Assembly (NCBI GenBank): GCA_963847855.1
Contig: CAWKBM010000002.1
Span: 112,177 to 176,176, forward strand
Reading direction: 5' to 3'
DNA length: 64,000 nucleotides
From: an uncultured Acidimicrobiales bacterium
GTDB taxonomy: Bacteria; Actinomycetota; Acidimicrobiia; Acidimicrobiales; DATKAS01
Shown here: positions 9,439 to 45,917 of the stretch, one piece after another
Numbering within the stretch: position 1 is the stretch's first letter
How the letters are laid out: each line of letters starts with the position of its first letter
The notes under the pieces: generated by a model
The model's input: only the letters and a program-made list of their open reading frames with translations
Database searches by the model: none
What the model was told of the DNA's origin: nothing
Position numbers and translations under genes: made by a program

Positions 9439-10454
9439 TCAGCCGCGCCAGAGCTGCAGAGGCGTGCGATCGCGCGGCCCCGTGAACGGCACCGCGACCT
9501 CGGAGCCAGCCGCTGCAGCGGATGCGTACGCGGCACAGACGACGTCGAGCACGGCACGCCCGAAGCGCGCGTCCATCAGCGGAGGCGTGGCACCAGCGAA
9601 CGCCGCGAGGAAGGCCTCGAGCTGGCCGACGTAGCCGTACTGCTCGAGCTGGGGGATCGGTGCCGTGACGGTTGGGAGCGTGAGCACGTCACCGTTGCGC
9701 TCGAGGAGTGGCGTCGGCAACAGCTCAGCTCGCACGACCCCCGTCGCGCTCGCCGCCTGCGCGCTCCACTCGGGCACCTCGCCGCCGCGCCAGCTCGACA
9801 CGACAGTCGCGTTGAAGCCGTGCTCGAACGTAAGGGTCACCACTGCGTGCTCGTCCGTGGGATGGTCGTCCGCTCCTTCGAGCAACGCGGACACCGACAC
9901 CACGTGTGATCGTGCTGCGAGCATCGCGATCGCGACCGGGTGCACACCGAGATCGAAGAGCGCGCCGCCACCCCAGTCTTCGGTGAGGAATTCTCCCAGG
10001 TAGGGCGGCTCTGCACCGTACGTACCTCGAGATGCTGGAGGTCTCCGAGCTGCTCGACCTCGGAGACGAACTGCTGCACGATCGGCGCGTACGCGAGGTT
10101 CTCTGCGTACCCGATGCGAGCGCCGGCTTGCTCCGCGACAACCAGTGCATCGGCGGCGGCGAGCGTCGTGCACAACGGCTTCTCGATCACGACCGAGGCG
10201 CCGCGGCCGATGGCGTGCAGCGCGTGGTCGGCATGGCACTGAGGCGCGCTGCACACGACGACGAGCTCCGCGTCGCCGGGCAGCTCGTCGTAGCGGCAGG
10301 CGATCGCGCCCATGCGGGTCGCCATCTCCTTTGCCTTCTCGTGGTGCCGTGATGCGACGCGGCTGATCGGAAGGCCGAGCTGCTTCGAGGCGAGACCGTG
10401 CACGGCTGCGATCCAGCCCGCGCCGGCGAACGCGACGCGAGGGGCGTCGTTCAC
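9439..10454 (-). CDS. Gfo/Idh/MocA-family oxidoreductase; one frame break near 10020
   Basis: The N-terminal Rossmann half (RVAFAGAGWIAAVH..EKPLCTT) is in the 9837-10454 ORF. The C-terminal half (GGGALFDLGVHPVAIAML..) is in the 9439-10254 ORF. Confidence 0.75.
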
Positions 10455-28250: not shown

Positions 28251-29526
28251 GTGAAGTTCACCTGGTTCAACCTCATGCCGTGGCCCGATCTGCCGGATGA
28301 CTTCCGGGACACCGAACGCTCGGTCTGGGTCGACATCCCGAGCTCGCTGTTCGACCCGAGCGGGCGCAACGCGGTCTACAACGAGTACATGGATCAGCTC
28401 GAGTACGCCGACGTCCGTCGGCTTCGACGGCATCGGCGTCAACGAGCACCACCAGAACGGCTACGGCATCATGCCGAGCCCGAACATCATCGCCGCCGGC
28501 CTGGCGCGGCGCACGAGTCAACGCGGCGATCTGCGTGATCGGCAACTCGATCGCGCTGTACAACCCGCCGATCCGTGTGGCCGAGGAGTTCGCGATGCTC
28601 GACTGCATCTCGCGGCGGCCGGCTCGTCGCCGGCTTCCCGGTCGGCACGCCGATGGACACGAACTTCTGCTACGGCCAGATCCCGGCGCTGACCCGCGAC
28701 AAGTACCGCGAGGCGCACGAGCTGATCATGAAGGCGTGGGCACGAGCCCGAGCCGTTCGCCTTCGACGGCAAGTACAACCAGCTGCGCTACGTCAACTGC
28801 TGGCCGCAGCCGATCCAGCAGCCGCATCCGCCGATCTACATCCCGGGCGGCGGGTCGATCGAGACGTGGGACTTCTGCCTCGACCACGACTACAACTACT
28901 CCTACCTCTCCTTCGGCGGCTACATGGCCGGCAAGACGCTGCTCGACGGCTACTGGGAGCGGCGTCGCGGACGCGGCGACAAGGACGACTCCCCGTACCG
29001 GGCCAGCGTTCGCCCAGATCATCTGCGTGGCCGACACCGACGAGGAGGCCGAGAAGCTCTACGCCGAGCACATCCTCTACTTCTTCAACCGCTGCCTGCA
29101 CGTGTACCCGGGCTTCTCCGACCCGCCCGGCTACCGCACGGTCAACACGATCAAGGCCGGCATGCTCGACCAGTTCCGGGCCGAGAACGCATGGAGCTGT
29201 TCCCGAAGCTGACCTGGAAGGACCTCGTCGACGGCGGCTTCGTGATCGCCGGCAGCCCCGACACCGTGCGCGACCGGATGGAGGACATGATCCACGTCGC
29301 TGCGGGTCGGCCACGTGTTCTGCCTGATGCACAACGGGCAACATGCCGGACTGGAAGACGCGCTACTCGACCCAGCTGTTCGCCGAGAAGGTGATGCCGC
29401 AGCCTGCGCAACATGTGGCCCGACCACGAGGGCGACGATCGGTGGTGGATCCATCCGCTCGAGGAGCGGGTGCATGCCGACGAGACGTTCGCCGACGCAC
29501 GCCGCCACGGGGAGGTCCCGCAGTGA
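28251..29526 (+). pseudogene. LLM-class flavin monooxygenase interrupted by about 9 frame breaks
   Basis: The family-like sequence can be followed through frames 0>1>2>0>1>2>1>2>0>1. Segments: [18 protein letters not shown].. / [29 protein letters not shown] / AICVIGNSIALYNPPIRVAEEFAMLD / GGRLVAGFPVGTPMDTNFCYG / FAFDGKYNQLRYVNCWPQP..IYIPGGGS / FAQIICVADTDEEAEKLY / MELFPKLTWKDLVDGGFVIAGSPDTV / LRVGHVFCLMHNG / MPDWKTRYSTQLFAEKVMPQ / LRNMWPDHEG..*. Confidence 0.7.
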
Positions 29527-30354
29527 CCGACGTCGCGAGCGCACGGCACTCGAGCGCACGACGGTCACCACCCGACGAGGCATCACATGCGAGGTGCTCG
29601 TCGGCGCACCGGCATCGGGTCAGGCCGAGGGCTCGGTCGTGAGCTTCCACGGTGCGACCGGACCTCTCGGCGGTGAGCCGATGCTCGCGCGACCTCGCCG
29701 CGCGACTTCGCGCGTGTACGCGCCGATCTGGCCGGGCTACAGCGAGCAGGGCGGCGAGGAGAAGCTCGAGGACATGCTGGACTTCGCCCTGCACGGCGCC
29801 GACGTCGTCGAGGCGCTCGACTTGCATCGTCCTGCATCTCGTCGGGCACTCGATGGGCGGCATGATCGCCGCGGAGATGGCGGCCGTGGCACCCGAGCGC
29901 CTACGGCAGGCTCGCGCTGATCGCACCGCTCGGGCTGTGGCTCGACGACCACCCGATCCCCGACATCTACTCACTGCTGCCGTTCGAGTTCCCGCCGTTG
30001 CTGTTCCACGACGCGGCCGCCGGCACGGCGTTGATGGCGGGCGGGCTCGACTTCAACGACACCGAGGCGATCAAGACGTTCCTCATCGCGAACAGCCGTC
30101 GCCTGGGCACCGCGGGCAAGGTGCTCTTCCCGATCCCCAACCGTCGGCTGGCCAAGCGGCTCTACCGGATCACCAGCCCGACGCTGCTCGTGTGGGGTGA
30201 CGACGATCGATACGTGCCGAGCGCGTACGCAGACGCGTGGCAGGGTGCGATCGAGGGGGCGAGCCTCGAGGTCATCCCGGGCGCAGGGCACATGTCGCCG
30301 TACGAGCAGCCCGCGGACGTCGCAGCCGTGATCGGAAGGTTCTTCGGGGTGTGA
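29523..30354 (+). pseudogene. alpha/beta-fold hydrolase interrupted by about 5 frame breaks
   Basis: The GTG overlaps the LLM stop (GTGA). Fragments: SVVSFHGATGPLGGEPMLA / RVYAPIWPGYSEQGG..HGADVVEALDL / HLVGHSMGGMIAAEMAAVAPERL / LALIAPLGLW.. through to ..GAGHMSPYEQP, ending at 30354. Confidence 0.65.
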
Positions 30355-34363: not shown

Positions 34364-34473
34364 TTGTCCACAGGGCTGACCTGCAGGTATCAGAGGATCA
34401 CCAAAGGTCGCGAAAAGACCCACTACCGTCGCCCGCTTGATCGACATCCTGATGGCGGTCCGGGCGGCAACAC

Positions 34474-34966
34474 GTGGGGGCCGCTTTGGACCACCAGACA
34501 CTTCAACCTGAGTTCTCGGACGCGATGGCGTCGGCTTTGGCCGGCGCTCGCTCCGTACGAGTCCAAGGTTGGATGGCCGAGGAGTGCGAGGCAGCGGCGC
34601 TCGAGCGCCTGGCTCGCCACTGGCCTCGAGTGCACCGAGATCCCTCGAAGGCGTACGCCGTCGGCAGGGGTGCGGCGCTCGACGAGCTGCGCCGGCTGAC
34701 TGGGTGGCGGCGACGGACGCGGATGTCCCTCGTGCCGCTCGCTCCCGACGACATCGACCAGCCGGAGATCGAACCTGGTTTCGAGCTCGTCGATGCCGCC
34801 GACGAGCTGTCCCGCAAGCTCCAAAGGCTGCGGCCGCGTGATCAGGAGATCACGTTGCGACTCGCGTCCGGGTGCACCGGGTCGAGAGGTCGCGGCCGGT
34901 CTCGGCGTCTCGCCGTCGATCGTGTCGGTTGCTCTGCGCAGGATCAGCGCGCGCTTCGGCCGCTGA
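34474..34966 (+). CDS. small sigma-70 region-4/HTH-like protein; frame break near 34870
   Basis: ..ELSRKLQRLRPRDQEITLRLASG continues in the next frame as REVAAGLGVSPSIVSVALRRISARFGR*. Codon usage is less GC3-biased than in neighbouring genes. The start is uncertain. Confidence 0.4.
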
Positions 34967-36342
34967 CCTCCGCGTCCCATGCGTCTCCGGCCTCGTCGAG
35001 GAGAGCGGTGACGTCGCGGGGGAGGAGCACACCGGTCGCTTCCGCCACGCGGGCGGCCTCCTCGAATCGAGCGAGGAACGTCGCGCGGTCGCCGTAGCGC
35101 TCGATCGAGCGCGTCGCGGCCGAAGGGGTGCGACGACCCGCCGAGCATGCTGTACACGTCAGGAGCGAGCGGGATCGCACTGTTCGTCGCAATCGGTGCC
35201 ACGACCTGAGGGAGCCGGATCCCTCCTTGGGCGATGCCGTCGGCGTCGCGCACGACTTGCGCGGGATCGCCCGCGAACTCGATCTTCGGCTGCGATGGCG
35301 GAGGGGGTCCGCCGTTGATCCACTCGTGCATGTGGCGCATGCCGGCGTCGAACAGCGGGACCATCGGGATGCGGTTGATGCCCGTGGCAACCTGCATCGG
35401 CGCTCCGAAGTCACGCTCGTACTTCGGCGACCGAGCCGCTTGACCCTGTGCGGAGACGTGGCACGTGCCCGCGGACTCCCACCAGCAGAAGCGGTCGGTG
35501 TCCGGCTGGCGCACTGGGTAGCACACGATCGCCTCGAGCTCGGAGTTCACGATCATCACCGGCACGTCGAGGTCGTCACGGATGAGGTTGCTTCCGCGGA
35601 GCCGCATGCGGTTGTTGCTTCCGCTCGCGAGCTGCGGGTCGTTGAGGTTCAAGACGTAGTCGCCGACCTCCAAGGGGGAGCCTGCACCGAAGTAGATCTG
35701 CAGCAGGTAGCCGTCGAACGCGTGCGACAGCGGATGGATGGCGTTCACGTAGGTGCCGAGCCGTGCGGCGGACTGTGACGCGCCGAGTGCGACGAGATGA
35801 CGGACATCGAGGCCACCCATCGGATCGACGCCATCGCGAGGCCGGTCGGGTGCCACCGCTCGTGCAGCCTGAGTGAAGATGTCGAACGAGTAGTCGTCGC
35901 TCGGGATCGACAGCGACCCGTAGCGTTCCTTGTCCCAGTCGACGAGACCGAGGTTCATCGGCGCGATGCCGTGCACCCCAACACGTTGGGGAGTGACGCC
36001 GACGAACGCATAGCCGCCTTCGAGGATCTCGCGGCTGTCGCCACCGAAGAGATCGTGTCCCGCGCTGACGTTGTTCCACGACACGATGACGGTGCCGTTG
36101 AACCGAGCGGGATCGGCCGGCCGGTAGACCACGAAGCGGGTCTTGAACGGCATCGACTCGCAGGGCTCGACGTCCCACTTCCCGTCGCGCCCCAGCGGGG
36201 TGCCCGACTTCTCGCGGAAGCGTGTGGCGCTCCCTTCGAGGAAGAACTCGTCCGAGGCATAGCCGATCGCTGCGAAGTCGATCGTCGGCCCGCCGAACGC
36301 CCACCCGCGCTCGCCGCCTGTGACTGGTCCGGTGACGCCCAT
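34944..36342 (-). CDS. conserved hypothetical protein, probable alpha/beta hydrolase-like; one extra base near 35110
   Basis: ATG 36342 (MGVTGPVTGGERGW..), with a candidate nucleophile elbow in LVALGASQSAARLG. The C-terminus ALIERYGDRATFLARFEEAARVAEATGVLL.. is in ORF 34944-35414. Confidence 0.55.
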
Positions 36343-36380: not shown

Positions 36381-37454
36381 ATGACCGGCCAGAGCAGTGG
36401 GGGGATCTCGCGCCGAGGGCTGCTGGCCGCCGGCGCGGTGGCGGCCGTCGTGCCCCGGCTTCGCCTCCCCGAGCTGGTCGTTCCGCGCGAGCCGGTCGCG
36501 GTGGCGCCCGGACTCGCGATCTGGCCACGCGACTCGTGGGCACCGGCGCCGCCTACGGGACCGCTCGCCGAGGAGGACGTGCGTTTCCTCCTCGTCCACC
36601 ACACCGCGGCCAACACCGAGCATCGGGGCGACGAGGTGCCCGGCTTGCTTGCCGCGATGTACCAGTTCCACACCGGAGAGAAGGGGTGGCACGACATCGC
36701 GTACAACTTCCTCGTCGATCGAGAAGGCGGCGTGTGGGAAGGACGAGCCGGCAGCCTCGCCGGCCCCGTCGCCGCAGACGCGACAGGTGGAAGTCAGGGG
36801 TTCGATCAGCTCGTGTGCTTCATTGGTGACTTCACGGCCGTGACGCCGACTGCCGCGGCACTGGAGGCCGGAACCCGCACGCTCGCGTGGCTCGCCGGCC
36901 GCTATCGCATCGACACGTCTGCGGGGGCGAAGGTGACGTTCGTGTCCCGAGGATCGAACAAGTGGCCCGCCGGAGCGCGTGTCACGACCGCGACTGTGGC
37001 GGGTCATCGCGAGATGTCGACGACCGCGTGCCCGGGCAATGCGTTCTATCCCTATGTCCGCGACCAGATGCAGGGCGCCGTGCAGGAGCTGCGCGGCGGC
37101 GCCGCGCCGGCGACCGTTGCTGCGACGACGACGACCGCCGCGACAACGGCGCCGACGACGACCGCAGTTGCGACGACTCCTGCGCCGACCACGACGACCG
37201 CGCCGACCACGACGGCCGCGCCGACCACGACGGCCGCGCCGACGACGACGGCCGCGCCGACGACGACGGCCGCGCCGACCACGACGACCGCCGCACCGAC
37301 GACGGTCGCGCCGAGGGCTGCCGGCGACGCCGCTGCTCCCGCGGGCGGGGGCGGGAGTGGATTGCCGGTCGTGCCGATCGGCGCAGCTGCCGTAGTTGGG
37401 GCCGGCGCCGCGCTGGTGTGGCTGCGACAGCGAGTGCTGTCTGAGAAAGACTGA
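36381..37454 (+). CDS. Tat-signal N-acetylmuramoyl-L-alanine amidase (Amidase_2/PGRP type) with Thr/Ala-rich linker and C-terminal TM anchor
   Basis: SRRGLLAAGA twin-arginine motif; FLLVHHTA..WHDIAYNFLVDREGGVWEGR..GHREMSTTACPG; an (APTTTA)n linker; C-terminal LPVVPIGAAAVVGAGAALVWL. Confidence 0.8.
   Translation: MTGQSSGGISRRGLLAAGAVAAVVPRLRLPELVVPREPVAVAPGLAIWPRDSWAPAPPTGPLAEEDVRFLLVHHTAANTEHRGDEVPGLLAAMYQFHTGEKGWHDIAYNFLVDREGGVWEGRAGSLAGPVAADATGGSQGFDQLVCFIGDFTAVTPTAAALEAGTRTLAWLAGRYRIDTSAGAKVTFVSRGSNKWPAGARVTTATVAGHREMSTTACPGNAFYPYVRDQMQGAVQELRGGAAPATVAATTTTAATTAPTTTAVATTPAPTTTTAPTTTAAPTTTAAPTTTAAPTTTAAPTTTTAAPTTVAPRAAGDAAAPAGGGGSGLPVVPIGAAAVVGAGAALVWLRQRVLSEKD
37182..37307 (+). repeat. 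about 7 copies of an 18-bp tandem repeat (GCGCCGACSACGACGRCC) encoding APTTTA
   Basis: Read directly: successive 18-mers at 37182, 37200, 37218, 37236, 37254, 37272 and 37290, with 0-4 mismatches. Confidence 0.85.
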
Positions 37455-37504
37455 GAAATATTGAAAGGGGTGTTGATTTGCGAACAGGTGTTCGGTAGTG
37501 TGGA

Positions 37505-38850
37505 GTGATGCGGGAGTCGGGGCGGGCGAGGGAGCTGGAGGCGCGGGTCGGGGTGCTGCTCGCTCAGCAGCACGCGTTGGGCGCCGAGATCGTCGAGTGT
37601 CTGGCTGAGCTCGACGAGCTGGATGGCTGGCAGGGTGAGGGGTATCGGTCGTTGGCGCACTGGCTGTCGGTGCGGGGCAAGGTGACGTTGGCCGAGGGCC
37701 GCTCGTTTCAGACCGCGGCGTTACGGCTCGGCAATGTCGGGTCGATCCACGCCGATGCGCTCGCCGGGAAGCTGTCGGTGGGGGTGTTGGCGATGGCGGC
37801 GCGGGTCGCGACACCCGACAACGAGGCGCTCGTCGCGCAGGTCGTGCGGGACACGGTCCCGACCCAGGCGGCGCGGATCTTCGCGAAGTACCGCGAATGC
37901 CGGAAGCCCGATGAGCCCGAGCTGGGACCTGATCCGGATGTTGACTTCTGGGAGAAGCATTGGGTCGACGACCTCGGCCGTGACCGTTACGACCTGGCGC
38001 TCGACGCGGTCACGGGCGCGCTGTTCGGGCAGGCGTGGGCGGCGGCGCGTGCGGCCGGCGAGAAGGATCTCGACCCGACCGACATGCGAGCAGCGCCGCC
38101 GGTTGAACGCGAACGAGATCGCGGCGCGGTTCGCGCAGGCGATGCTCGACGCCGCGGCCGGGGCGGGTCTGCGCGATCGGGGCGACGAGCGCTTCTGTGT
38201 GCAAGTCTGCGTCGACCTGGCGACGCTGGCCCGGGTGCTCGGCTACGACCTCGACGTGGGATCACCGGTCGGGCTGGGCACCCACTGCTTCATCCCGACC
38301 ACCGGGCAGCGGCTCACCGACGGCGAGCTGGCCCGCATCATGTGCGGGGCGAGCGTGCAGATGCTGATCCACCAAGACGGGGTGCCGCTGTGGCTCGGCG
38401 GCGAAGTCCGATCCGCGAGCCGGCATCAGCGTCGAGCGTTGCGGTTCCGTGCCGGAGTGACCGGCTGCGAGTTCCCCGGATGCACCCAGACCCGCTACGT
38501 CGACGCGCACCATGTCCGCTTCTACCGACATGGTGGCCCCACCGACCTCGACAACCTCGTGCTGCTGTGCGGCTACCACCACCGCCAGATCCACGATCAC
38601 GGCTGGACCATCACCACGAGCGGCGATCAGGCCTTCACGTTCTGGCGAGGCGAACGCTGCCTCGGCACCACCACCCGAGGCGACACCACCGACGGGCGAC
38701 CACCCGACCTCGCCGCACTCCCGCTCATCGAACAGCTCCCCGACCCGCCGCGTGGCATCGGTCCCGACACCGCCACGCGCGACCAGCGGCGGCGAACGAC
38801 TCACCACCTACGCACTCAGCGTCTACCTCGAACACCTACTCGCGGCGTGA
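37505..38850 (+). CDS. DUF222 / HNH endonuclease protein (REP13E12-like); two +1 frame breaks (~38085, ~38790)
   Basis: DUF222-like N-terminus (..LDELDGWQGEGYRSLAHWLS..). HNH core CEFPGCTQTRYVDAHHVRFYRHGGPTDLDNLVLLCGYHHRQIH in the 37734 frame. The last ~20 aa are in the 38512 frame. Confidence 0.75.
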
Positions 38851-39795
38851 GTCAGCTCCGTCGTCTGTGACGTCGAAGAGCCGGGTCGCGGGCACGCGGT
38901 TGATCGTGAGGCGCAGCACGTCGGGACGCGAGTAGTGACCGCCGACGTCGCACAGCGCCTTCGCCGTGTGCAACAGGTCGTGCGACCCCTTGGCCATCAA
39001 GATCTCCTCGCCGGCGCAGGGACCTGCGATGACCTCGCCGGTCGGATCGATGATGCAGCTGTCGCCACTCAACGGCCGCAGCATGCCCACGACCTCGCGG
39101 AGCAGTGGCTCGGTGATGTCGTCGACGGAGAGGAGTCCTCCCACGAGCATGACGTAGGCCGCGGCCTGGGAAGCGAACGCACGGGAGAGCAGAGTCTGGC
39201 GAGTGCCGCCTCCGGCTGACTCGTAGCCGGGGAACGCGGCGACGTGCACCTGGGTGCCTTGTGCCATGAGCGCGTAGCCGGGAAGCACCATGTTGTGCTC
39301 CCAGCAGTTGAGGCCGCTGATCCGGGCGTAGGGCCGTTCGTGCACGCGCAGACCGCTGCCGTCGCCCTCACCCCAGGCGAAGCGCTCGCCGTAGGTCGGC
39401 TTGAGCTTTCGGTGCGTGCCGAGGATCTCGCCATCGGCACTGATGAAGACGAGCGTGCAATACGTCGTGCCCCGCGAGACCGGATCGAGCTCCGCGATCC
39501 CCAGGACCACATCGACACCGCAACGCCGCGCGGTGGCTCGCACCAGGTCGACCTCCGGTCCGGCGACCAGCACCGACGCCGCGAGGTAGCGACCACCGAG
39601 CTCACGCTTGATCCCGACGTCGACGGGTGCGTTGATCCAACGCGGGTAGCCAGGGAGCCAGGTCTCGCTGAACGCCACGAGGTCGGCGCCTTGCGTCGCC
39701 GCCTCGTCGATGAGCCGGCATGCCTTCTCCGCCGATGCGGCGGGGTCGAGGAAGACGGGGGCGGCCTGCACCGCGGCCATCACGAAGTCGCTCAT
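38836..39795 (-). CDS. nitrilase / carbon-nitrogen hydrolase family protein
   Basis: 319 aa from ATG 39795. Catalytic triad contexts AFSETW (Glu), HRKLKPT (Lys), LNCWEH (Cys). Confidence 0.85.
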   Translation of the reverse strand: MSDFVMAAVQAAPVFLDPAASAEKACRLIDEAATQGADLVAFSETWLPGYPRWINAPVDVGIKRELGGRYLAASVLVAGPEVDLVRATARRCGVDVVLGIAELDPVSRGTTYCTLVFISADGEILGTHRKLKPTYGERFAWGEGDGSGLRVHERPYARISGLNCWEHNMVLPGYALMAQGTQVHVAAFPGYESAGGGTRQTLLSRAFASQAAAYVMLVGGLLSVDDITEPLLREVVGMLRPLSGDSCIIDPTGEVIAGPCAGEEILMAKGSHDLLHTAKALCDVGGHYSRPDVLRLTINRVPATRLFDVTDDGADSRRE

Positions 39796-39865
39796 GCCCA
39801 GGTCAGCGGGCAGGGACGTCGCGGGGTCCTCACCAGCTCCAGGGTACGTGCCACGGTGGAGCGCC

Positions 39866-40499
39866 ATGTCTGGCGCGACCGTGCTCCTCGTGTACGACCG
39901 CGACGCCACCCTCGAGCCGGCGCTGCACTTCCACGGCTTCGATGTGCAGACCGGAAGACGGGCCGCGCGCGCTTGCAGCTGCAGTCGACCCGACCGTCGA
40001 TGAGTGTCTCGAGGTCGACTGGCCGACATCGACGGGTCGAGGTGTGCGCGGGGGAGGGGGGAAGAGGGGGGGGGGACCAGGATCGAGTCCGCGGCATCTC
40101 GGTCGGCGCCGACGACTACATCGCGAAGCCTGTCGATCTCGAGGAGATCGTCACCCGTCTGCGTGTCGTCATGCGGCGGGCGAACCCTCCTCGGCACATC
40201 GCCCGGCTCGGCGCTCGCGGACCTCGAGCTGAACGACCATGCGCACCTCGTGACTCGCGCCGGCAACCCGGTGCTGCTGTCACCGACGGAGTACCGGCTC
40301 CTGCGCTACCTCCTCGAGAACTCAGCACGAGTGGTGTCGAGAGGGGAGCTGCTCGATCAGGTGTGGCATCGCGACGAGGAGGAAGGGACCAACGTGGTCG
40401 ACACCTACGTCGGCTATCTCCGACGCAAGATCGACCACGTCGATCCCAAGCTCCTCCACACGGTCAGAGGCTTCGGCTACGTGTTCGCGTTGGCCGCTG
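39866..40499 (+). pseudogene. OmpR-family response regulator (RR1), at least 4 frame breaks and a G-tract replacing the beta4 region
   Basis: Fragments: VLLVYDRDATLEPALHFHGFDVQT / EDGPRALAAAVDPTVDECLEVD / LADIDGSRCARG / DQDRVRGISVGADDYIAKPVDLEEIVTRL / LLSPTEYRLLRYLLEN..VVDTYVGYLRRKID..VRGFGYVF. The 3' end is uncertain. Confidence 0.6.
40050..40075 (+). repeat. G-rich tract G5-A-G6-AA-G-A-G10
   Basis: Read directly as GGGGGAGGGGGGAAGAGGGGGGGGGG. This is the longest homopolymer I noticed in the window. Confidence 0.9.
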
Positions 40500-40509
40500 A
40501 CCTTGCTGG

Positions 40510-41666
40510 TCACACGCCGGGCAGCAGGAACACGTTCGCCGCGAGACCCGTGGCGTCGGAGTTGCGCTGCACGAGCTCGGCGAGCGTCGTGCGGTAGGTG
40601 ATGTTGAAGCGTTGTTCGATCACTCGCAGGGCTGGATCGTTCAAGTAGAAGAACCGATCTCCGTCACGGAGTCGGGTGAACTGGTCCTTCCAGATACGCG
40701 TTCTGCAGCTCGCCGAGCTCGCTCCCGGGGAGGTGCTGCTCGGAGAGCATCCCCGTGAACGCGTCCAGCCGGTCGGGTGAGCTGAAGACGGCCTTCAGTC
40801 GGGCGGCGACCGTGGTGCGCCGCACCTCGCGCACCGCGTCGGCGGCGGCGGCTTCTGACCCGAGAGGGATCTTGTTGCCGCTGCGATCGAAGAGCGCGAG
40901 GACGTCCAGGATGTTCGGGTCGTTGATGGGATCGCGTGGATTGATCAGCGGATCCCGGGGGAACGACTCTGTCGACTCACCGGTGATCGCGGTGAAGGAC
41001 GACTTTGGGGCGAGCCCGTACGCGCTGACGCAGATCGTTGTACACGGGCATCCCATGGTCGCGGCCGCGCTGCACGTCGATCGCTCCGAGGTCAACGACG
41101 CCGCGGAAGCACGACGGCGGTGCATCGGCCCCGACACACAGTGCGGGATCGGAGCCGGGTGCGGGCAGCTCGAACAACGTGCTGCGCATCTCGTTGTCCA
41201 TCTGCTCGTCGTTTGCGTACTGCGACTCACCGCCGAGGGCGGCCAAGACCGGGCCGAGGCCGATCTGCTGGACGAGCGCAGGGCTACCGAAGGCGACGTC
41301 GAGGGGCACTGCGAGCACGATCGCCGTGCCCTCGTCCTCCACGACGATGCCCTGCTTCCTGAACGCATCCAGCTCGGCGGCACTGAAGTGTCCGGGTGCG
41401 ACATCGATCTCGAACTCACCGTGGATCATGCTGTGCATGCGGTAGCCGACCGTGGCGAACTCGTTCGAGAGCGACGCGTCGACGTGTGGGTCGTAGCCGC
41501 GATAGCGGTCCAGCTGCACGCCGACGGCGGGAAGGAACTCGTTGTACGTGATGTACTGCTCCTCCGCGCCGACGACTCGACGGGCGATCTCGAACTTCAG
41601 CTGTTCGGACAGGTTGCGCGGGAAGCATTGGTCGGGGAGAGCCTGAGAGGCGTCGGCAGAGCCCAT
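40510..41666 (-). pseudogene. animal-haem-peroxidase (peroxidase-cyclooxygenase) family fragment, N-terminally truncated, 2 frame breaks
   Basis: ARRVVGAEEQYITYNEFLPAVGV..NEFATVGYRMHSMIHGEF..VVDLGAIDVQRGRDHGMPVYNDLRQ / AYGLAPKSSFTAITGE.. / IWKDQFTRLRDGDRFFYLNDPAL..NVFLLPGV*. About 180-200 N-terminal residues of the domain (distal haem side) are absent. Confidence 0.65.
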
Positions 41667-41720
41667 TGGCAGAGACGTGGCAGGTCGGCAAGAGCCGGTG
41701 GGCGTTCGGTCAGCCGATGT

Positions 41721-42354
41721 CGGTTCGAGCACGTAGCCCACCGATCGCACGCTTCGAATCGCCACCGACTCGGGAAGCTTGCGCCGGAGGTATCCGACGT
41801 AGACGTCGACGACCTTGGGTGAGCAAGCTCGGCTCCCCATATGGAGAAGGAGGATCTGGCGGCGCGTCACGATCTGGCCGCCGTTGACGATCAGATATCG
41901 CAGCAGGCGGTACTCGGTGAGCGACAGCCGATAGGGCTTCCGTTGTGCAGCACCGCCCCCGTTCGTCGTCGATCGAGATGTCGGCAACGTGCAGGTCCCC
42001 GCGGCGTTGATGTCGATCCTCCAAAGGATCCTGCGTACGCCGCCGACAAGCCGTTGACGCTCACGGGACGCATCAGGACAGCGTCACCGCCCGCGAGCAG
42101 GGCGTCGATCCTCGCTTCCAGATCGGCGCGCGCGACACGAACACGATCGGGATGTCGATGCCCCGACTCCGCCAGCGCAGGCACAGCTCGACGCCGCCGA
42201 CGGGCTCGAGCGCAGCGTCGAGCACGACAAGATCGGGTCGCCGAAGCTGAGCGCATGTCGCTTCGTCGCTGTGCGCGTGACGAGAACCTGCAGGCCGTCG
42301 CGAACGTGGCCCGCAGAAGGCCTCGGGAGTGCTCGTCGTCGTCGGGACGAGCAC
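41721..42354 (-). pseudogene. OmpR-family response regulator (RR2), at least 6 frame breaks
   Basis: Fragments spread over all three minus frames: VLV/VDDDEHSRGLLRATF / DGLQVLVT / LRRPDLVVLDAALEPVGGVELCLRWRSRGIDIPIVFVS / ARADLEARIDALLAGGDAVLMRP / LHVADISIDDERG / YRLSLTEYRLLRYLIVNGGQIVTR..VVDVYVGYLRRKL..VRSVGYVLEP. Confidence 0.55.
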
Positions 42355-42487
42355 GCGAGGGGTACCCCGGTCGACAGGGAAGGTCGTGATGGCGCTCCTC
42401 GGCGTCCTCGCAAACGATCCGTGCCCGAGAGTCATCGACACAATCCCGCGAAAGCGTGAGAGGAAATCGCGGCCTACGGTCTGCGGC

Positions 42488-42883
42488 GTGGAGCTGACCG
42501 AGCTGGTTGCCACGATGCCCTTTGCGGTCACGCTCGGCATCGAGATCACTGCTGCCGCACCGGAAGGCGTCACGGGCTCGCTCGATCACCGGCCCGATCT
42601 CTGCACGACCGCCGGCGTGCTCCACGGGGGAGCGCTGATGACGCTCGCGGACACGGTGGGAGCGGTGTGCGCGTTCCTGAACCTTCCGGCCGGAGCACGC
42701 ACTTCGACGCTCGAGTCGAAGACGAACTTCTTACGTGCGGTGACGGCCGGAAGAGTCACGGCAGCTTGCGCGCCGGTGCACGTGGGGCGATCGACGATCG
42801 TGCTGCAGACTCAGGTCCGCGACTCGACTGATCGTCTCGTGTCCCTCACGACTCAGACTCAGACGGTCCTGACCAGTCCTTGA
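42488..42883 (+). CDS. PaaI-family hotdog-fold thioesterase
   Basis: GTG 42488; MPFAVTLGIEI..GVLHGGALMTLADTVGA..ESKTNFLRAV. The ORF-track N-terminus (42329) overlaps RR2. Confidence 0.75.
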   Translation: MELTELVATMPFAVTLGIEITAAAPEGVTGSLDHRPDLCTTAGVLHGGALMTLADTVGAVCAFLNLPAGARTSTLESKTNFLRAVTAGRVTAACAPVHVGRSTIVLQTQVRDSTDRLVSLTTQTQTVLTSP

Positions 42884-44008: not shown

Positions 44009-44535
44009 GGCCTGAGCCTTCCACGGGCCGACGTGCCGGCTCAGATCGCGTGCCTCCCAGATTGCCTCTACTCGTCCGTGCCAGCTCCTGCCGCGCGGTC
44101 CTCGTCGGTGAGCTCCTGCTTCGGGATGTCGAGCTCTGCCATCGCCGCTTCGAGATCCTCGTCCGTGGCCCGATGGGGCGAGCTGGTCGTGAACTGGACG
44201 AGCATCCACGCGGACAGCGGGCGGCGAAACGGGCACACCTTTCGTCGATCACAAAGACATCGAATGGGATGCTCTCGACGGCGAGAAGCTCTTGCGGGCT
44301 GAGGCGGCGCTTGTGGCGGCGTGGGCCGGAGTACTCGCCGAGGAGCGCGTCACGGACGTCTACAACGAGGAAGGGGCGAAGGACGACCTCGACTACGGCA
44401 CGTCGTGCACGGCGGCCCGTACACCTTCGCCGACGCCGCGCAGGCGACGGCCTTCGTCGCCGAAGCGGTCGAGTCGCTGATGTATCTCGGCTGCGACGTC
44501 TACGCCGAGTAGCGCCCGCGTTCAACGGCGCGCGC

Positions 44536-45069
44536 CTAGGTACTCGTCCATTCCGGCGCGAGGAGGCCGAGGACGACCTCGTCCGCGAACGCGCCGTCGA
44601 CCCAGGCTCCGCCTCGCAGTGTTCCTTCGTGCGTGAAGCCAACACGCGTCGCCGCCTTGATCATCGGCTGATTGTCGGCGAGCGTCTCGAGCTGTAAGCG
44701 GTGTAAGCCACGAGTGCCGAAGCCGTAACAGCAGAGCACGCGGAGCACGTCGACGCTCAAGCCGCGACCGCGGAAGCCCGGACGCAGCGAGACTCCGAGA
44801 TGGGCGGCCCTGTTGTGCAGATCGATGCCCCAGAGGAGCGCTTCGCCCGCGAGCTCCCCGCCGGCGCACTCCACTACCGAGAAGATTGCGACATCCGCAG
44901 CAGGCTCCGCCACGCGGTACGGCGAGGCGGGCGAGTCGGCCGAGAGCGGCACCCACGGGCGCGAGTCGGCCCGCGACCGCGTCGGGACGTCGTCGTAAAG
45001 CTCCGCGTGCAGCACTGCGACGTCTGCATCGCTGCGCGAGCGCAGGTCCACCTTCTCTCCCCGGAGCAT
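44536..45069 (-). CDS. GNAT-family N-acetyltransferase
   Basis: 177 aa with the acetyl-CoA loop region RPGFRGRGLSVDVLRVLCCYGF and GFTHEGTLRG. Confidence 0.8.
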   Translation of the reverse strand: MLRGEKVDLRSRSDADVAVLHAELYDDVPTRSRADSRPWVPLSADSPASPYRVAEPAADVAIFSVVECAGGELAGEALLWGIDLHNRAAHLGVSLRPGFRGRGLSVDVLRVLCCYGFGTRGLHRLQLETLADNQPMIKAATRVGFTHEGTLRGGAWVDGAFADEVVLGLLAPEWTST

Positions 45070-45333
45070 CTCGACAGTTCTACCTTTCTCGACGCGATGA
45101 CACTCGCGCGTGCGGGTGGAGATATCGACCGAGCGCGCTCGTGCAAGGTGATGCTCCGCTGTCTGACGGCGACCGTGCTGGCCGCCCCCATCATGGTTGC
45201 GTCGGTCGCCGCGGTAGCCGACAGGCTCCTCACGCGTGGGGAGCTGTTCGGCGACCGGGTCGACGAGCTGCGGCCGCCGAACTAGGCCACCGCGCGATGG
45301 CGGCCGACGACCAGCTCGCCCCGCTCGACCTTC

Positions 45334-45486
45334 GAGCCGGCGCCGCTCTCTTCACCCGAGGCCGCCGAAGATGCCCTCAGGCTCCTCGATGCCCGCGGCC
45401 AGACACTCGTCGCGCACGAGGCACCCGGCACAGATCGCCTTCGTACGCGCGCACGACTCGCCTGTGCCCGACGACGAGGATCGCAC
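45334..45486 (-). pseudogene. WhiB-like remnant with in-frame TGA
   Basis: The minus frame reads ..GESCARTKAICAGCLVRDECLAAGIEEPEGIFGGLG-TGA(45354-45352)-RERRRL. This matches the WhiB CxxC-x5-C and G[IV]WGG..ERRRL signatures. The first-Cys region is unclear (an SCDP lies in the adjacent frame). Confidence 0.35.
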
Positions 45487-45622
45487 GAGGGCCGCGGTCG
45501 ACGCGGTGCTCGTCGGCTCTGTGTGCTCACGCGTCGCTGCCCTCTGAGGGCTCCCCGGCTGGGTCAGGGGGTTGCGCGTCTTCGATCCCGTAGAACCATC
45601 GGGCGAATCGGTTGCGATGGAT

Positions 45623-45889
45623 CTACCGGTTCAGTCGAGACTCAGGCACCACGGGGATGTCCAGCCATCTCGGTCCGTGACCGGTCAGGCAGTAGGAGCA
45701 GAGTTCGACGGGGACCGTCGGGGTCCAAGTACTCGAGGAGGCGTTGATTGGCCTGCCGCATCTCGCGCAACGATCGGGTTCACCCACCGCTCGACATTGT
45801 GATGCGCCCTCGGGGAAGTCGCCACCGAAGCGACGCGGGCACTCGTGGTCGCGTGTCACGGCCGTGTCATGGCGTCCGGCGGAGGGCAT
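45623..45889 (-). CDS. possible small Cys-rich (zinc-ribbon-like) protein
   Basis: 88 aa from ATG 45889 with CPRRF..CRAV..CARCGRPI..CSYC. Codon bias is only moderate, and it starts ~30 nt after the rnpB 3' end. Confidence 0.3.
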   Translation of the reverse strand: MPSAGRHDTAVTRDHECPRRFGGDFPEGASQCRAVGEPDRCARCGRPINASSSTWTPTVPVELCSYCLTGHGPRWLDIPVVPESRLNR

Positions 45890-45917
45890 ATAATCCCAGG
45901 TCAGCGGCCGTAGTGAC

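Follow-up and report, generated by a model that had tools for sequence, protein, structure and literature searches.

Atypical response regulators, or pseudo-receivers, that lack the aspartate have been reviewed (PMC4395418, PMC12632262), and BldM and WhiI of Streptomyces are described in PMC4125116. The scheme of the peroxidase-cyclooxygenase superfamily and its G-Q-x-x-D-H motif were set out by Zamocky et al. 2015 (PMC4420034). On the technical side, homopolymer-derived indels are documented in Nanopore-only metagenome assemblies (PMC9262707), and two of the related loci used below, L003 and L005, stem from the MFD-LR MAG catalogue, which is Nanopore-only and was produced with Flye and one round of Medaka (PMC12313526).

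Here, we analysed a window of 64,000 nucleotides from an Acidimicrobiales bacterium, in which a haem peroxidase gene and two response regulator genes, RR1 and RR2, appear broken (Table 1). The reading that we favour, with moderate confidence, is that consensus noise overlies a conserved cassette which carries, in addition, one deletion that would be either recent or artefactual.

Table 1. Features of the cassette and of the dense indel patches, in coordinates of the 64,000-nucleotide window.
Feature	Coordinates	Strand	Description
Dense indel patch 3	28254..29901	+	Luciferase-like monooxygenase and start of alpha/beta hydrolase; 16-19 private 1-bp insertions
Nitrilase (CN_hydrolase)	38836..39795	-	Flanking, intact; no private indels; control
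Dense indel patch 1	39857..40212		About 10 private events in 355 bp, mostly 1-bp deletions
RR1, OmpR/PhoB-family response regulator	39866..40500	+	Orthologues in L001 and L003 are intact (224 aa)
G-rich low-complexity stretch GGGGGAGGGGGGAAGAGGGGGGGGGG	40053..40080		In place of about 60-65 nt of conserved receiver-domain sequence
Peroxidase remnant, peroxidase-cyclooxygenase superfamily	40510..41627	-	3' 52% of the gene
Deletion junction	41627..41628		Shortest loss 952 bp (against L001), longest about 1100 bp (against L003)
Kept part of the RR2-peroxidase intergenic region	41628..41709	-	Conserved repeat block; six-genome alignment with invariant blocks
Dense indel patch 2	41659..42488		About 15 private events in 830 bp; 12 of 13 single-base events are deletions
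RR2, OmpR/PhoB-family response regulator	41710..42435	-	Orthologous to an intact 246-aa gene of L001
4HBT thioesterase	42488..42883	+	Flanking, intact; GTG start; no private indels within the CDS; control

The cassette comprises, in order, a 4HBT thioesterase (divergent), RR2, a secreted haem peroxidase, RR1 (convergent) and a nitrilase. Five Acidimicrobiales loci carry it in synteny, with 75-88% nucleotide identity to the window, and both gene order and orientation are the same in the window and in these relatives. Among them, L083 (77% nucleotide identity) was the sole close relative obtained from a glyoxalase-anchored search of metagenome contigs; looking up the exact glyoxalase protein of the window in public collections gave no record. 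Intact orthologues are present in all five loci for RR2 (L001, L003, L004, L005 and L083), in L001 and L003 for RR1, and in L003 and L004 for the peroxidase; the full-length homologues and neighbourhoods that a preliminary description of this DNA had proposed to look for were thus found, within the same syntenic cassette. Judged from sequence comparison, a clade of soil Acidimicrobiales has conserved this cassette, and the locus is the copy that the present genome carries. When more distant loci from actinobacteria were examined, about one in five also had atypical regulators beside a member of this peroxidase family.

This conservation bears directly on the proposal, made in the preliminary description, of a rearranged accessory locus, possibly acquired horizontally. 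An island that entered by horizontal transfer and was rearranged on insertion would fit with the patchiness of the peroxidase family, which occurs in many Actinomycetota and in MAGs labelled Chloroflexi, Dehalococcoidia and Burkholderiales, and with a mobile-type DUF222/HNH gene at a distance of 1 kb, which neither L003 nor L005 has. We nonetheless consider such an origin extremely unlikely: the same order is kept in at least five related genomes at the identities given above, the suspected compositional deviation is not seen, the GC content being 0.658-0.671 in the cassette and 0.634-0.688 in the neighbours, and the window differs from the relatives by a single deletion, with neither inversion nor translocation.

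The genes first recognised from the letters alone do exist, as Pfam gives Trans_reg_C in both regulators (RR1, plus-strand frame 40004-40597, E 4.5e-25; RR2, minus-strand ORF 40977-41987, E 7.4e-14; both above the 26.2-bit cut-off) and An_peroxidase between them. The locus that we recovered consists of RR1 (+), the 3' half of the peroxidase (-) and RR2 (-), and it is crossed by about 25 frame-breaking indels; the many frame breaks announced earlier were therefore there, their number (at least 12) having been put too low. The arrangement had been pictured as a tail-to-tail pair of regulators converging on the peroxidase. RR1 alone converges, RR2 being located upstream of the peroxidase and co-directional with it, and RR2 starts at 42435 instead of 42354. 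Both regulators contain the motifs TEYRLLRYL and VDxYVGYLRRK, as had been observed, and they are paralogues at the level of the family; with 37% protein identity, they are not recent duplicates. The same value rules out a DNA-level inverted repeat between RR1 and RR2 that could have confused read mapping or caused an inversion.

Frames were assigned with a codon-usage HMM, which replaced a crude GC3 frame plot that was too noisy, and those of RR1 were compared with the L001 RR1 by tblastn. The ATG start and the ancestral TGA stop of RR1 are confirmed in the window. Its receiver half is scrambled, its winged-helix (wHTH) half (about 40210-40497) remains in a single frame, and 10-14 window-private frame-breaking indels were counted; about 13 such events, supported by up to five relatives, were found in RR2. 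Response_reg is reduced in the window to scraps of 17.7 and 19.9 bits in several frames, against a cut-off of 30.2 bits, and the intact L001 orthologues of RR1 and RR2 possess both the receiver and Trans_reg_C. The G-rich stretch within RR1 contains the only homopolymer of at least 7 bases in the 15 kb examined, and its presence over conserved sequence is implausible. The preliminary description had also read an open frame running from the RR2 winged helix into the peroxidase, and there is indeed a 336-aa ORF (40977-41987) that bears Trans_reg_C and An_peroxidase. What keeps this ORF open is the loss of 1 bp at 41715/41716: the RR2 stop codon (TGA, 41710-41712), which follows shortly after, is thereby out of frame. 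The fusion would thus be an accident of a single 1-bp error and of the deletion of about 1 kb.

The intact orthologues tell what the cassette looks like when undamaged. In L001, L003 and L005, RR1 has a Glu at the site of the phospho-acceptor Asp (VLLEVDL; position of PhoB D53 and PhoP D71). At the positions of T83 and K105, RR1 has Ser and Lys. RR2 orthologues keep the phospho-acceptor Asp; all five have His or Gln instead of the conserved Lys (PhoB K105), the acidic pair is often lacking or degenerate, and the L001 protein has Ala at the conserved Thr/Ser (T83). The PhoB reference residues (D53, T83 and K105) were placed with what we take to be the PhoB sequence; the PhoP alignments were computed. 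In the annotated relative L001, gene calls over 10 kb on each side include neither HisKA nor HATPase_c. The lack of a nearby sensor kinase, which had been listed among the signs of decay, carries no such meaning, since the intact orthologues are themselves atypical regulators without an adjacent kinase: the absence of the kinase is ancestral.

The peroxidase orthologues have an N-terminal signal peptide and a Ser/Thr-rich linker, and the intact protein, as predicted from its sequence, is likely a Sec-exported peroxidase encoded directly downstream of RR2. Between the two genes, intact relatives carry GCTCTTGCCGAC twice, 33 bp apart. The window has one copy at 41684-41695 and a second one, minus one T, at 41652-41662. 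This repeat block is probably an operator or promoter of the peroxidase, a candidate through which RR2 and RR1 would control the gene without phosphorylation.

Compared with all five related loci, the window shows one clean and collinear deletion, and the truncation that the preliminary description held to be a true structural difference is one. The missing piece starts 32 nt before the ATG of the peroxidase and extends to about codon 306-342, with no microhomology at the junction (41627|41628). The leader, the ribosome-binding site, the start codon, the signal peptide, the linker and the distal half of the haem pocket are lost, which confirms the N-terminal loss and enlarges it from the 180-200 residues first estimated to 306-342 codons plus 32 nt of leader. 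Neither the missing N-terminus nor the distal motif is found anywhere in the 64-kb window (tblastn best E 1.5), and the same search excludes a relocation of the N-terminus inside the window.

What remains of the peroxidase begins at ...PRNLSEQLKFEIARR and matches the L003 orthologue (715 aa) from residue 343 to residue 713, spread over three frames (tblastn) by two private +1 insertions at 40696 and 41026, both supported by five relatives. An_peroxidase (PF03098) is detected with 95.5 bits against a cut-off of 25 and covers profile positions 250-418 of 530, positions 427-470 matching in the next frame; the full-length L003 orthologue reaches 325 bits over positions 2-431 and beyond. The proximal haem-ligand His is kept, as YRMHSMIHG aligns to the yrvgHtm segment of PDB 8S6C. 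The distal G-Q-x-x-D-H, with the catalytic His and the ester-forming Asp (WGQFLDH in P0001, L003, L004 and L005), disappeared with the deleted part, and so did the R-x-x-E with the catalytic Arg and the second ester-forming Glu, which reads RANE in the orthologues and precedes the breakpoint. No enzyme can be encoded by what is left in the window.

The small indels have a distribution of their own. Patch 1, polarised by three relatives, starts in the spacer between the nitrilase and RR1 and stops inside RR1; patch 2 covers RR2 and both of its spacers up to immediately 5' of the thioesterase GTG; patch 3 lies about 11 kb away, in genes unrelated to the cassette, and stops inside a gene. Indel density reaches 2.8% in patch 1 and 1.8% in patch 2; the 1.45 kb that separates these two has about 0.3%, and the nitrilase, the thioesterase and the glyoxalase have no indels. 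Lone private frameshifts were also observed at 34878, 35105 and 38086, in three conserved genes (77-91% protein identity). All of the small indels are private to the window, as polarised by up to five relatives. Those of the two RR patches are nearly all deletions (65% A or T), and those of patch 3 nearly all insertions, mostly of C or G. Over 46 indel sites, runs of 1, 2 and 3 bases account for 59%, 33% and 9% of the events, against 62%, 27% and 7.5% expected, and runs of at least 4 bases contain none; homopolymer slippage and classical homopolymer error are thus excluded, since the run lengths match those of random positions. The deleted bases fall evenly over the three codon positions, which gives no support to a mixed-strain consensus, for which deletions at variable or third-codon sites would be predicted. 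By eye, no sequence motif, such as a methylation site, was found around the indel sites.

Substitutions tell a different story from indels. With the indels left aside, dN/dS is 0.109 (dN 0.040) for RR2 against 0.25-0.34 in intact orthologues, 0.228 for RR1 against 0.14, 0.127 for the peroxidase remnant against 0.10-0.13, and 0.178 for the luciferase-like monooxygenase of patch 3. Two control rows calculated in a wrong frame, one for the gene at 30353 and one for the thioesterase, were set aside. The dN/dS values of the cassette genes, at or near the intact level (0.10-0.34), speak against a long neutral phase, and the description of the locus as decaying is not supported. RR2 has 13 indels for 23 window-private substitutions (14 on the L001 branch), RR1 has 10 for 35 (29 on the L001 branch), and in the remnant 44 substitutions are private to the window, compared with 18 for L001. 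Neither the relaxed selection nor the proportionate excess of substitutions expected of a gradual pseudogene is seen in RR1, RR2 or the remnant. The large excess of indels over substitutions, the purifying dN/dS, the lack of a homopolymer bias and the presence of indels in unrelated genes together point to consensus noise and not to decay. Of the two options left by the preliminary description, a decaying accessory locus or a local mis-assembly, a problem of the sequence itself is the better one. The roughly 25 small indels are most probably not mutations; they would be errors left in the consensus of an assembly with low coverage, probably built from long reads, and grouped in patches of 0.35-1.6 kb, and RR1 and RR2 would not be decayed in the organism itself.

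Several observations do not sit easily with consensus noise. The outer edges of the RR patches lie 10-60 bp from intact genes, as selection against frameshifts predicts. With just 2 indels in 1.1 kb, the remnant separates the two patches, so that a simple low-coverage region would need to be discontinuous. The excess of substitutions in the remnant could reflect real relaxed evolution, and we know of no established technical cause that would make the indels so strictly polar and so biased in base. An alternative is a genuine and very recent pseudogenisation, in which a real deletion killed the peroxidase, the regulators then became useless and all three genes are gaining real frameshifts. The clean and collinear deletion, the flanking genes free of small indels, the patch edges near gene boundaries, the substitutions of the remnant and a larger nonsynonymous share along the branch of the window than along that of L001 are all consistent with it. 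Nevertheless, bacterial pseudogenes generally gain several to many substitutions per indel, and here 13 and 10 indels accompany mere excesses of about 9 and 6 substitutions in RR2 and RR1. Moreover, dN/dS of RR2 is below that of its intact orthologues, the homopolymer bias that replication slippage would give is absent, and the remnant, equally dead, has an indel density about 5-10 times lower than the RR patches. Finally, patch 1 stops inside RR1 as patch 3 does inside a gene, and the unrelated monooxygenase/hydrolase pair 11 kb off shows the same burst with the opposite polarity. On balance, we regard recent pseudogenisation as unlikely.

The deletion has to be considered apart from the small indels. 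The remnant gives no sign that selection has been relaxed for long, so that the deletion must be recent (it may be a strain variant) or else an artefact of assembly or reads. It is possible, though in our view somewhat doubtful, that the junction is a mis-join or a deletion in a single supporting read, and that the peroxidase is really full-length and the locus undamaged. The baseline purifying selection in the remnant, the lack of microhomology, the position of the junction between two low-quality patches and the other consensus errors in the window would all agree with this. An exact search for the 26-nt junction in JGI metagenomes gave no match, a result of low power given that the relatives come from ENA data. 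On the other hand, the DNA on either side of the junction comes from one locus and is oriented alike, which leaves no chimera of unrelated DNA, and the sequence on the peroxidase side of the junction is comparatively clean. Kilobase deletions are also uncommon as consensus errors, and strain-level deletions are common.

If the indel patches were real, a localised and polarity-biased frameshift mutagenesis would have struck RR1, RR2 and the monooxygenase/hydrolase pair in a very short evolutionary time, deleting A/T in one place and inserting C/G in another without raising the substitution rate and sparing the neighbours; we hold this to be highly unlikely. With consensus noise as the preferred reading, most of the apparent decay would be a matter of sequence quality, which makes the finding an ordinary one. 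It nevertheless calls for caution, since automatic annotation would yield a 336-aa Trans_reg_C and An_peroxidase fusion together with several bogus pseudogenes, and patches of this kind would inflate the pseudogene census of this genome. The ratio of indels to substitutions, combined with dN/dS against close relatives, tells noise from true decay without reads. As a modest by-product, the comparison shows that soil Acidimicrobiales of one clade maintain a cassette without a kinase, where a secreted haem peroxidase lies between two different atypical OmpR-family regulators. Together with the atypical regulators at the more distant loci, this offers a starting point for testing what bacterial 'animal-type' peroxidases do.

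How does the locus compare with known systems? As in Nanopore-only assemblies, private single-base frameshifts are found in the window, in L005 (one in the peroxidase and one in RR1) and in the Flye-style contig L001 (four in the peroxidase); they are absent from L003 and from the MEGAHIT-style (short-read-style) contig L004. The indels of the window differ from such errors by having no homopolymer preference, by their clustering and by a fixed polarity in each patch.

For the regulators, the nearest solved structure is M. tuberculosis PhoP (PDB 3R0J, 9JI3), which has the receiver and the winged-helix Trans_reg_C in common with them and with which the intact orthologues align end to end (RR1, E 3e-60; RR2, E 1e-34). 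A conserved direct repeat upstream of the neighbouring gene is also what is expected of the OmpR/PhoB family. They depart from it by the Glu that replaces Asp in RR1 (LLEVD) and by the His or Gln that replaces Lys in RR2, and the window copies are unreadable as they stand. RR1 and RR2 resemble the atypical response regulators in being orphans and in missing residues of the phosphotransfer quintet, a condition common in Actinomycetota, although RR2 differs from the aspartate-less regulators by keeping its Asp. In the literature consulted here, we met no description of a single secreted peroxidase flanked by two atypical regulators that differ from each other.

For the peroxidase, the nearest structure is PDB 8S6C, deposited as 'Lactoperoxidase' (528 aa), which the orthologue matches with E 3e-61. 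The full-length orthologues share with the peroxidases of the superfamily the distal WGQFLDH, the R-x-x-E (RANE) and the proximal His; they differ from the G-Q-x-x-D-H-D pattern by a Thr in place of the second Asp, and the window keeps the proximal half only.

The peroxidase locus is part of a conserved cassette. Used as a protein-search query, the repaired remnant (the 3′ part of a peroxidase-cyclooxygenase-superfamily gene) retrieved full-length homologues of ~630 aa and also two close matches with 85% and 92% identity. Starting from the contigs of the close matches and from a scan of species-representative genomes, we obtained close loci, counted as five, from a 559-kb ENA contig (L001), two MFD Acidimicrobiales MAGs (L003, L005), a MEGAHIT-style contig (L004) and JGI contigs (L002, L083). 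Each is collinear with the window (75-88% nucleotide identity), with glyoxalase, thioesterase, RR2, peroxidase, RR1 and nitrilase in the same order; RR1 and RR2 are response-regulator genes. RR2 is intact in L001, L003, L004, L005 and L083, RR1 in L001 and L003, and the peroxidase in L003 and L004. The cassette is therefore inherited vertically and is no rearranged island. The preliminary description of a rearranged accessory locus is thus not borne out: gene order is identical in the relatives, and the check for compositional deviation found an unremarkable GC content for the cassette (the window as a whole is GC-rich, 0.684).

In the window (37438-38859) and in L001 (12618-14063), a DUF222/HNH endonuclease gene adjoins the nitrilase, while L003 and L005 have only ~57 bp at this site, which suggests a mobile insertion common to part of the clade. 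Collinearity with L001 also breaks at 44024-45910, where 1.9 kb with a weak, fragmented coding signal face 5.1 kb of unrelated sequence in L001 (667-5808).

Pfam domains and the placed start and stop codons confirm the presence of two OmpR-type regulators and a peroxidase fragment. The An_peroxidase match covers profile positions 250-418 of 530 in the same minus-strand ORF as the second winged helix and carries on to position 470 in the next frame, while the receiver domains of RR1 and RR2 give only sub-threshold Pfam scraps. RR2 was rightly recognised but made too short, and it runs in the same direction as the peroxidase instead of converging on it.

Features of the locus and of private indels in the window
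Feature	Position	Strand	Remark
RR1	ATG 39866, TGA 40498-40500	+	ancestral start and stop placed exactly
RR1 winged helix (Pfam)	40004-40597	+	
Peroxidase remnant, stop codon	40510-40512	-	ancestral stop placed exactly
RR2	ATG 42435-42433, TGA 41712-41710	-	ancestral start and stop placed exactly
ORF with RR2 winged helix and An_peroxidase (Pfam)	40977-41987	-	
Patch 1	39857-40212 (355 bp)		~10 private events
Between patches 1 and 2	40213-41658 (1.45 kb)		~4 private events, including two +1 insertions in the remnant
Patch 2	41659-42488 (830 bp)		~15 private events
Nitrilase, thioesterase, glyoxalase	whole genes		0 private events
Patch 3	28254-29901		16-19 private one-bp insertions, mostly C or G
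170-aa protein gene (otherwise conserved)	34453-34960		private +1 frameshift at 34878
Abhydrolase_10 gene (otherwise conserved)	34961-36336	-	private +1 frameshift at 35105
DUF222/HNH endonuclease gene (otherwise conserved)	~37400-38771		private +1 frameshift at 38086

Frame breaks are indeed present, and the minimum of 12 first reported is too low, as we count ~25 events. Polarised with up to five relatives, the small indels are all private to the window and strongly clustered. Among 46 single-base events, 59%, 33% and 9% fall in runs of one, two and three bases (62%, 27% and 7.5% for random positions) and none (0/46) in runs of at least four; this match to random positions disfavours replication slippage. 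Deleted bases hit all three codon positions. Some 60 nt of conserved coding sequence are replaced at 40053-40080 by a low-complexity, G-rich string in which ten Gs stand in a row.

Substitutions lag behind indels in RR1 and RR2. Private substitutions in the window versus L001 number 35 versus 29 in RR1, 23 versus 14 in RR2, 29 versus 26 in the nitrilase and 44 versus 18 in the remnant, where the doubling affects synonymous and nonsynonymous changes equally. With indels removed, pairwise dN/dS between the window and a relative is 0.109 for RR2 (dN 0.040; intact orthologues 0.25-0.34), 0.228 for RR1 (0.14) and 0.127 for the remnant (0.10-0.13). Despite 13 frameshifts, RR2 is thus if anything better conserved as a protein than its intact orthologues, which excludes a long neutral phase. 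A decaying locus does not agree with dN/dS near intact-orthologue levels and with substitutions too few for the indel count.

Furthermore, the same pattern occurs elsewhere in the window. A codon-usage HMM and alignment to L003 and L005 revealed patch 3, which covers a luciferase-like monooxygenase gene and the beginning of the next gene, an alpha/beta hydrolase (88% identity to L003, dN/dS 0.178). Relatives are also affected: the L001 peroxidase has four private single-base frameshifts in its N-terminal half (9480-9945), and in L005 the peroxidase and RR1 carry one each (11975 and ~11450); none was found in the cassettes of L003 and the short-read-style contig L004. The catalogue behind L003 and L005 is Nanopore-only, assembled with Flye and polished by one round of Medaka, and its authors checked it for Nanopore-associated errors (PMC12313526).

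Indel density in the patches is 1.2-2.8%. Such densities are about those expected from raw long-read accuracy, and the patches would fit stretches whose consensus was built from a single read or very few. Nonetheless, several points speak against an artefact: intact genes neighbour the RR patches closely at their outer edges, polarity and base bias are fixed within each patch (A/T deletions in the RR patches, C/G insertions in patch 3), and the remnant between the RR patches is comparatively clean and carries the excess of private substitutions. Because of these points, we hold with moderate confidence that the small indels are a consensus artefact and not mutations, and consider genuine recent pseudogenisation of the cassette unlikely; these readings, and that of an artefactual deletion, are not mutually exclusive.

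The truncation of the peroxidase is, as first proposed, a structural difference beyond indel error. Alignment to every relative stops at 41621-41627 and restarts at 41628-41640, leaving 952-1100 bp of relative sequence unmatched, a single deletion that we doubt is itself an artefact. No microhomology was found at the 41627|41628 junction, and the lost part is absent elsewhere in the 64-kb window. The loss was larger than first estimated, comprising residues 1-342 of the 715-aa L003 protein. Measured on L001, the deletion begins 32 nt before the ATG, ends at about codon 306 and includes the GGAGG ribosome-binding site. The window peroxidase has lost its signal peptide, its Ser/Thr-rich linker and, by alignment to the nearest solved structure (8S6C), the distal WGQFLDH and RANE motifs, which define the haem pocket of the superfamily (PMC4420034); the proximal His is retained. 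Full-length orthologues in L003 (9572-11719), L004 and L005 have a basic, hydrophobic N-terminal signal peptide, then a linker of 60-80 residues rich in Ser/Thr/Ala/Pro that leads to the peroxidase domain, and differ from the canonical G-Q-x-x-D-H-D motif by a Thr in place of the second Asp. The RR2 frame is indeed open into the peroxidase: loss of a single base shortly before the RR2 stop codon shifts this stop out of frame, and the 83-nt intergenic remainder then happens to contain no stop and to keep the phase of the remnant. Altogether, the evidence best supports one structural deletion combined with a local problem of sequence quality, in preference to a decaying accessory locus.

The missing sensor kinase, correctly observed, is not a sign of decay: none was called within 10 kb in L001 either, and its lack is ancestral. 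Six genomes share an invariant block in the spacer that runs from the RR2 stop to the ATG of the peroxidase, GCTCTTGCCGAC(C)TGCCA ... CTGCCA-N5-GCTCTTGCCGAC, with two copies of GCTCTTGCCGAC 33 bp apart and two CTGCCA boxes between them (window 41652-41695, minus strand; L001 8785-8835). It is a plausible candidate for a regulator binding site, operator or promoter; the window retains this block, but all that followed downstream is gone. Of 75 more distant loci with this peroxidase family, 14 also have an OmpR-type regulator directly upstream or downstream of the peroxidase (L008, L016, L017, L019, L021, L022, L023, L031, L035, L045, L057, L059, L060 and L066). In several of these 14 regulators, the conserved Thr is replaced by Gly or the first acidic residue by Asn, His or Ser. 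The locus is of value as a flag for an annotation trap and offers a modest clue to a kinase-less regulator-peroxidase module. Compared with M. tuberculosis PhoP, the nearest solved regulator structure, RR1 orthologues have a Glu at the position of the phospho-acceptor Asp, whereas RR2 orthologues keep this Asp, with the conserved Lys replaced by His or Gln and a degenerate acidic pair; together with the lack of a kinase within 10 kb, these replacements point to both being atypical, pseudo-receiver-type regulators.
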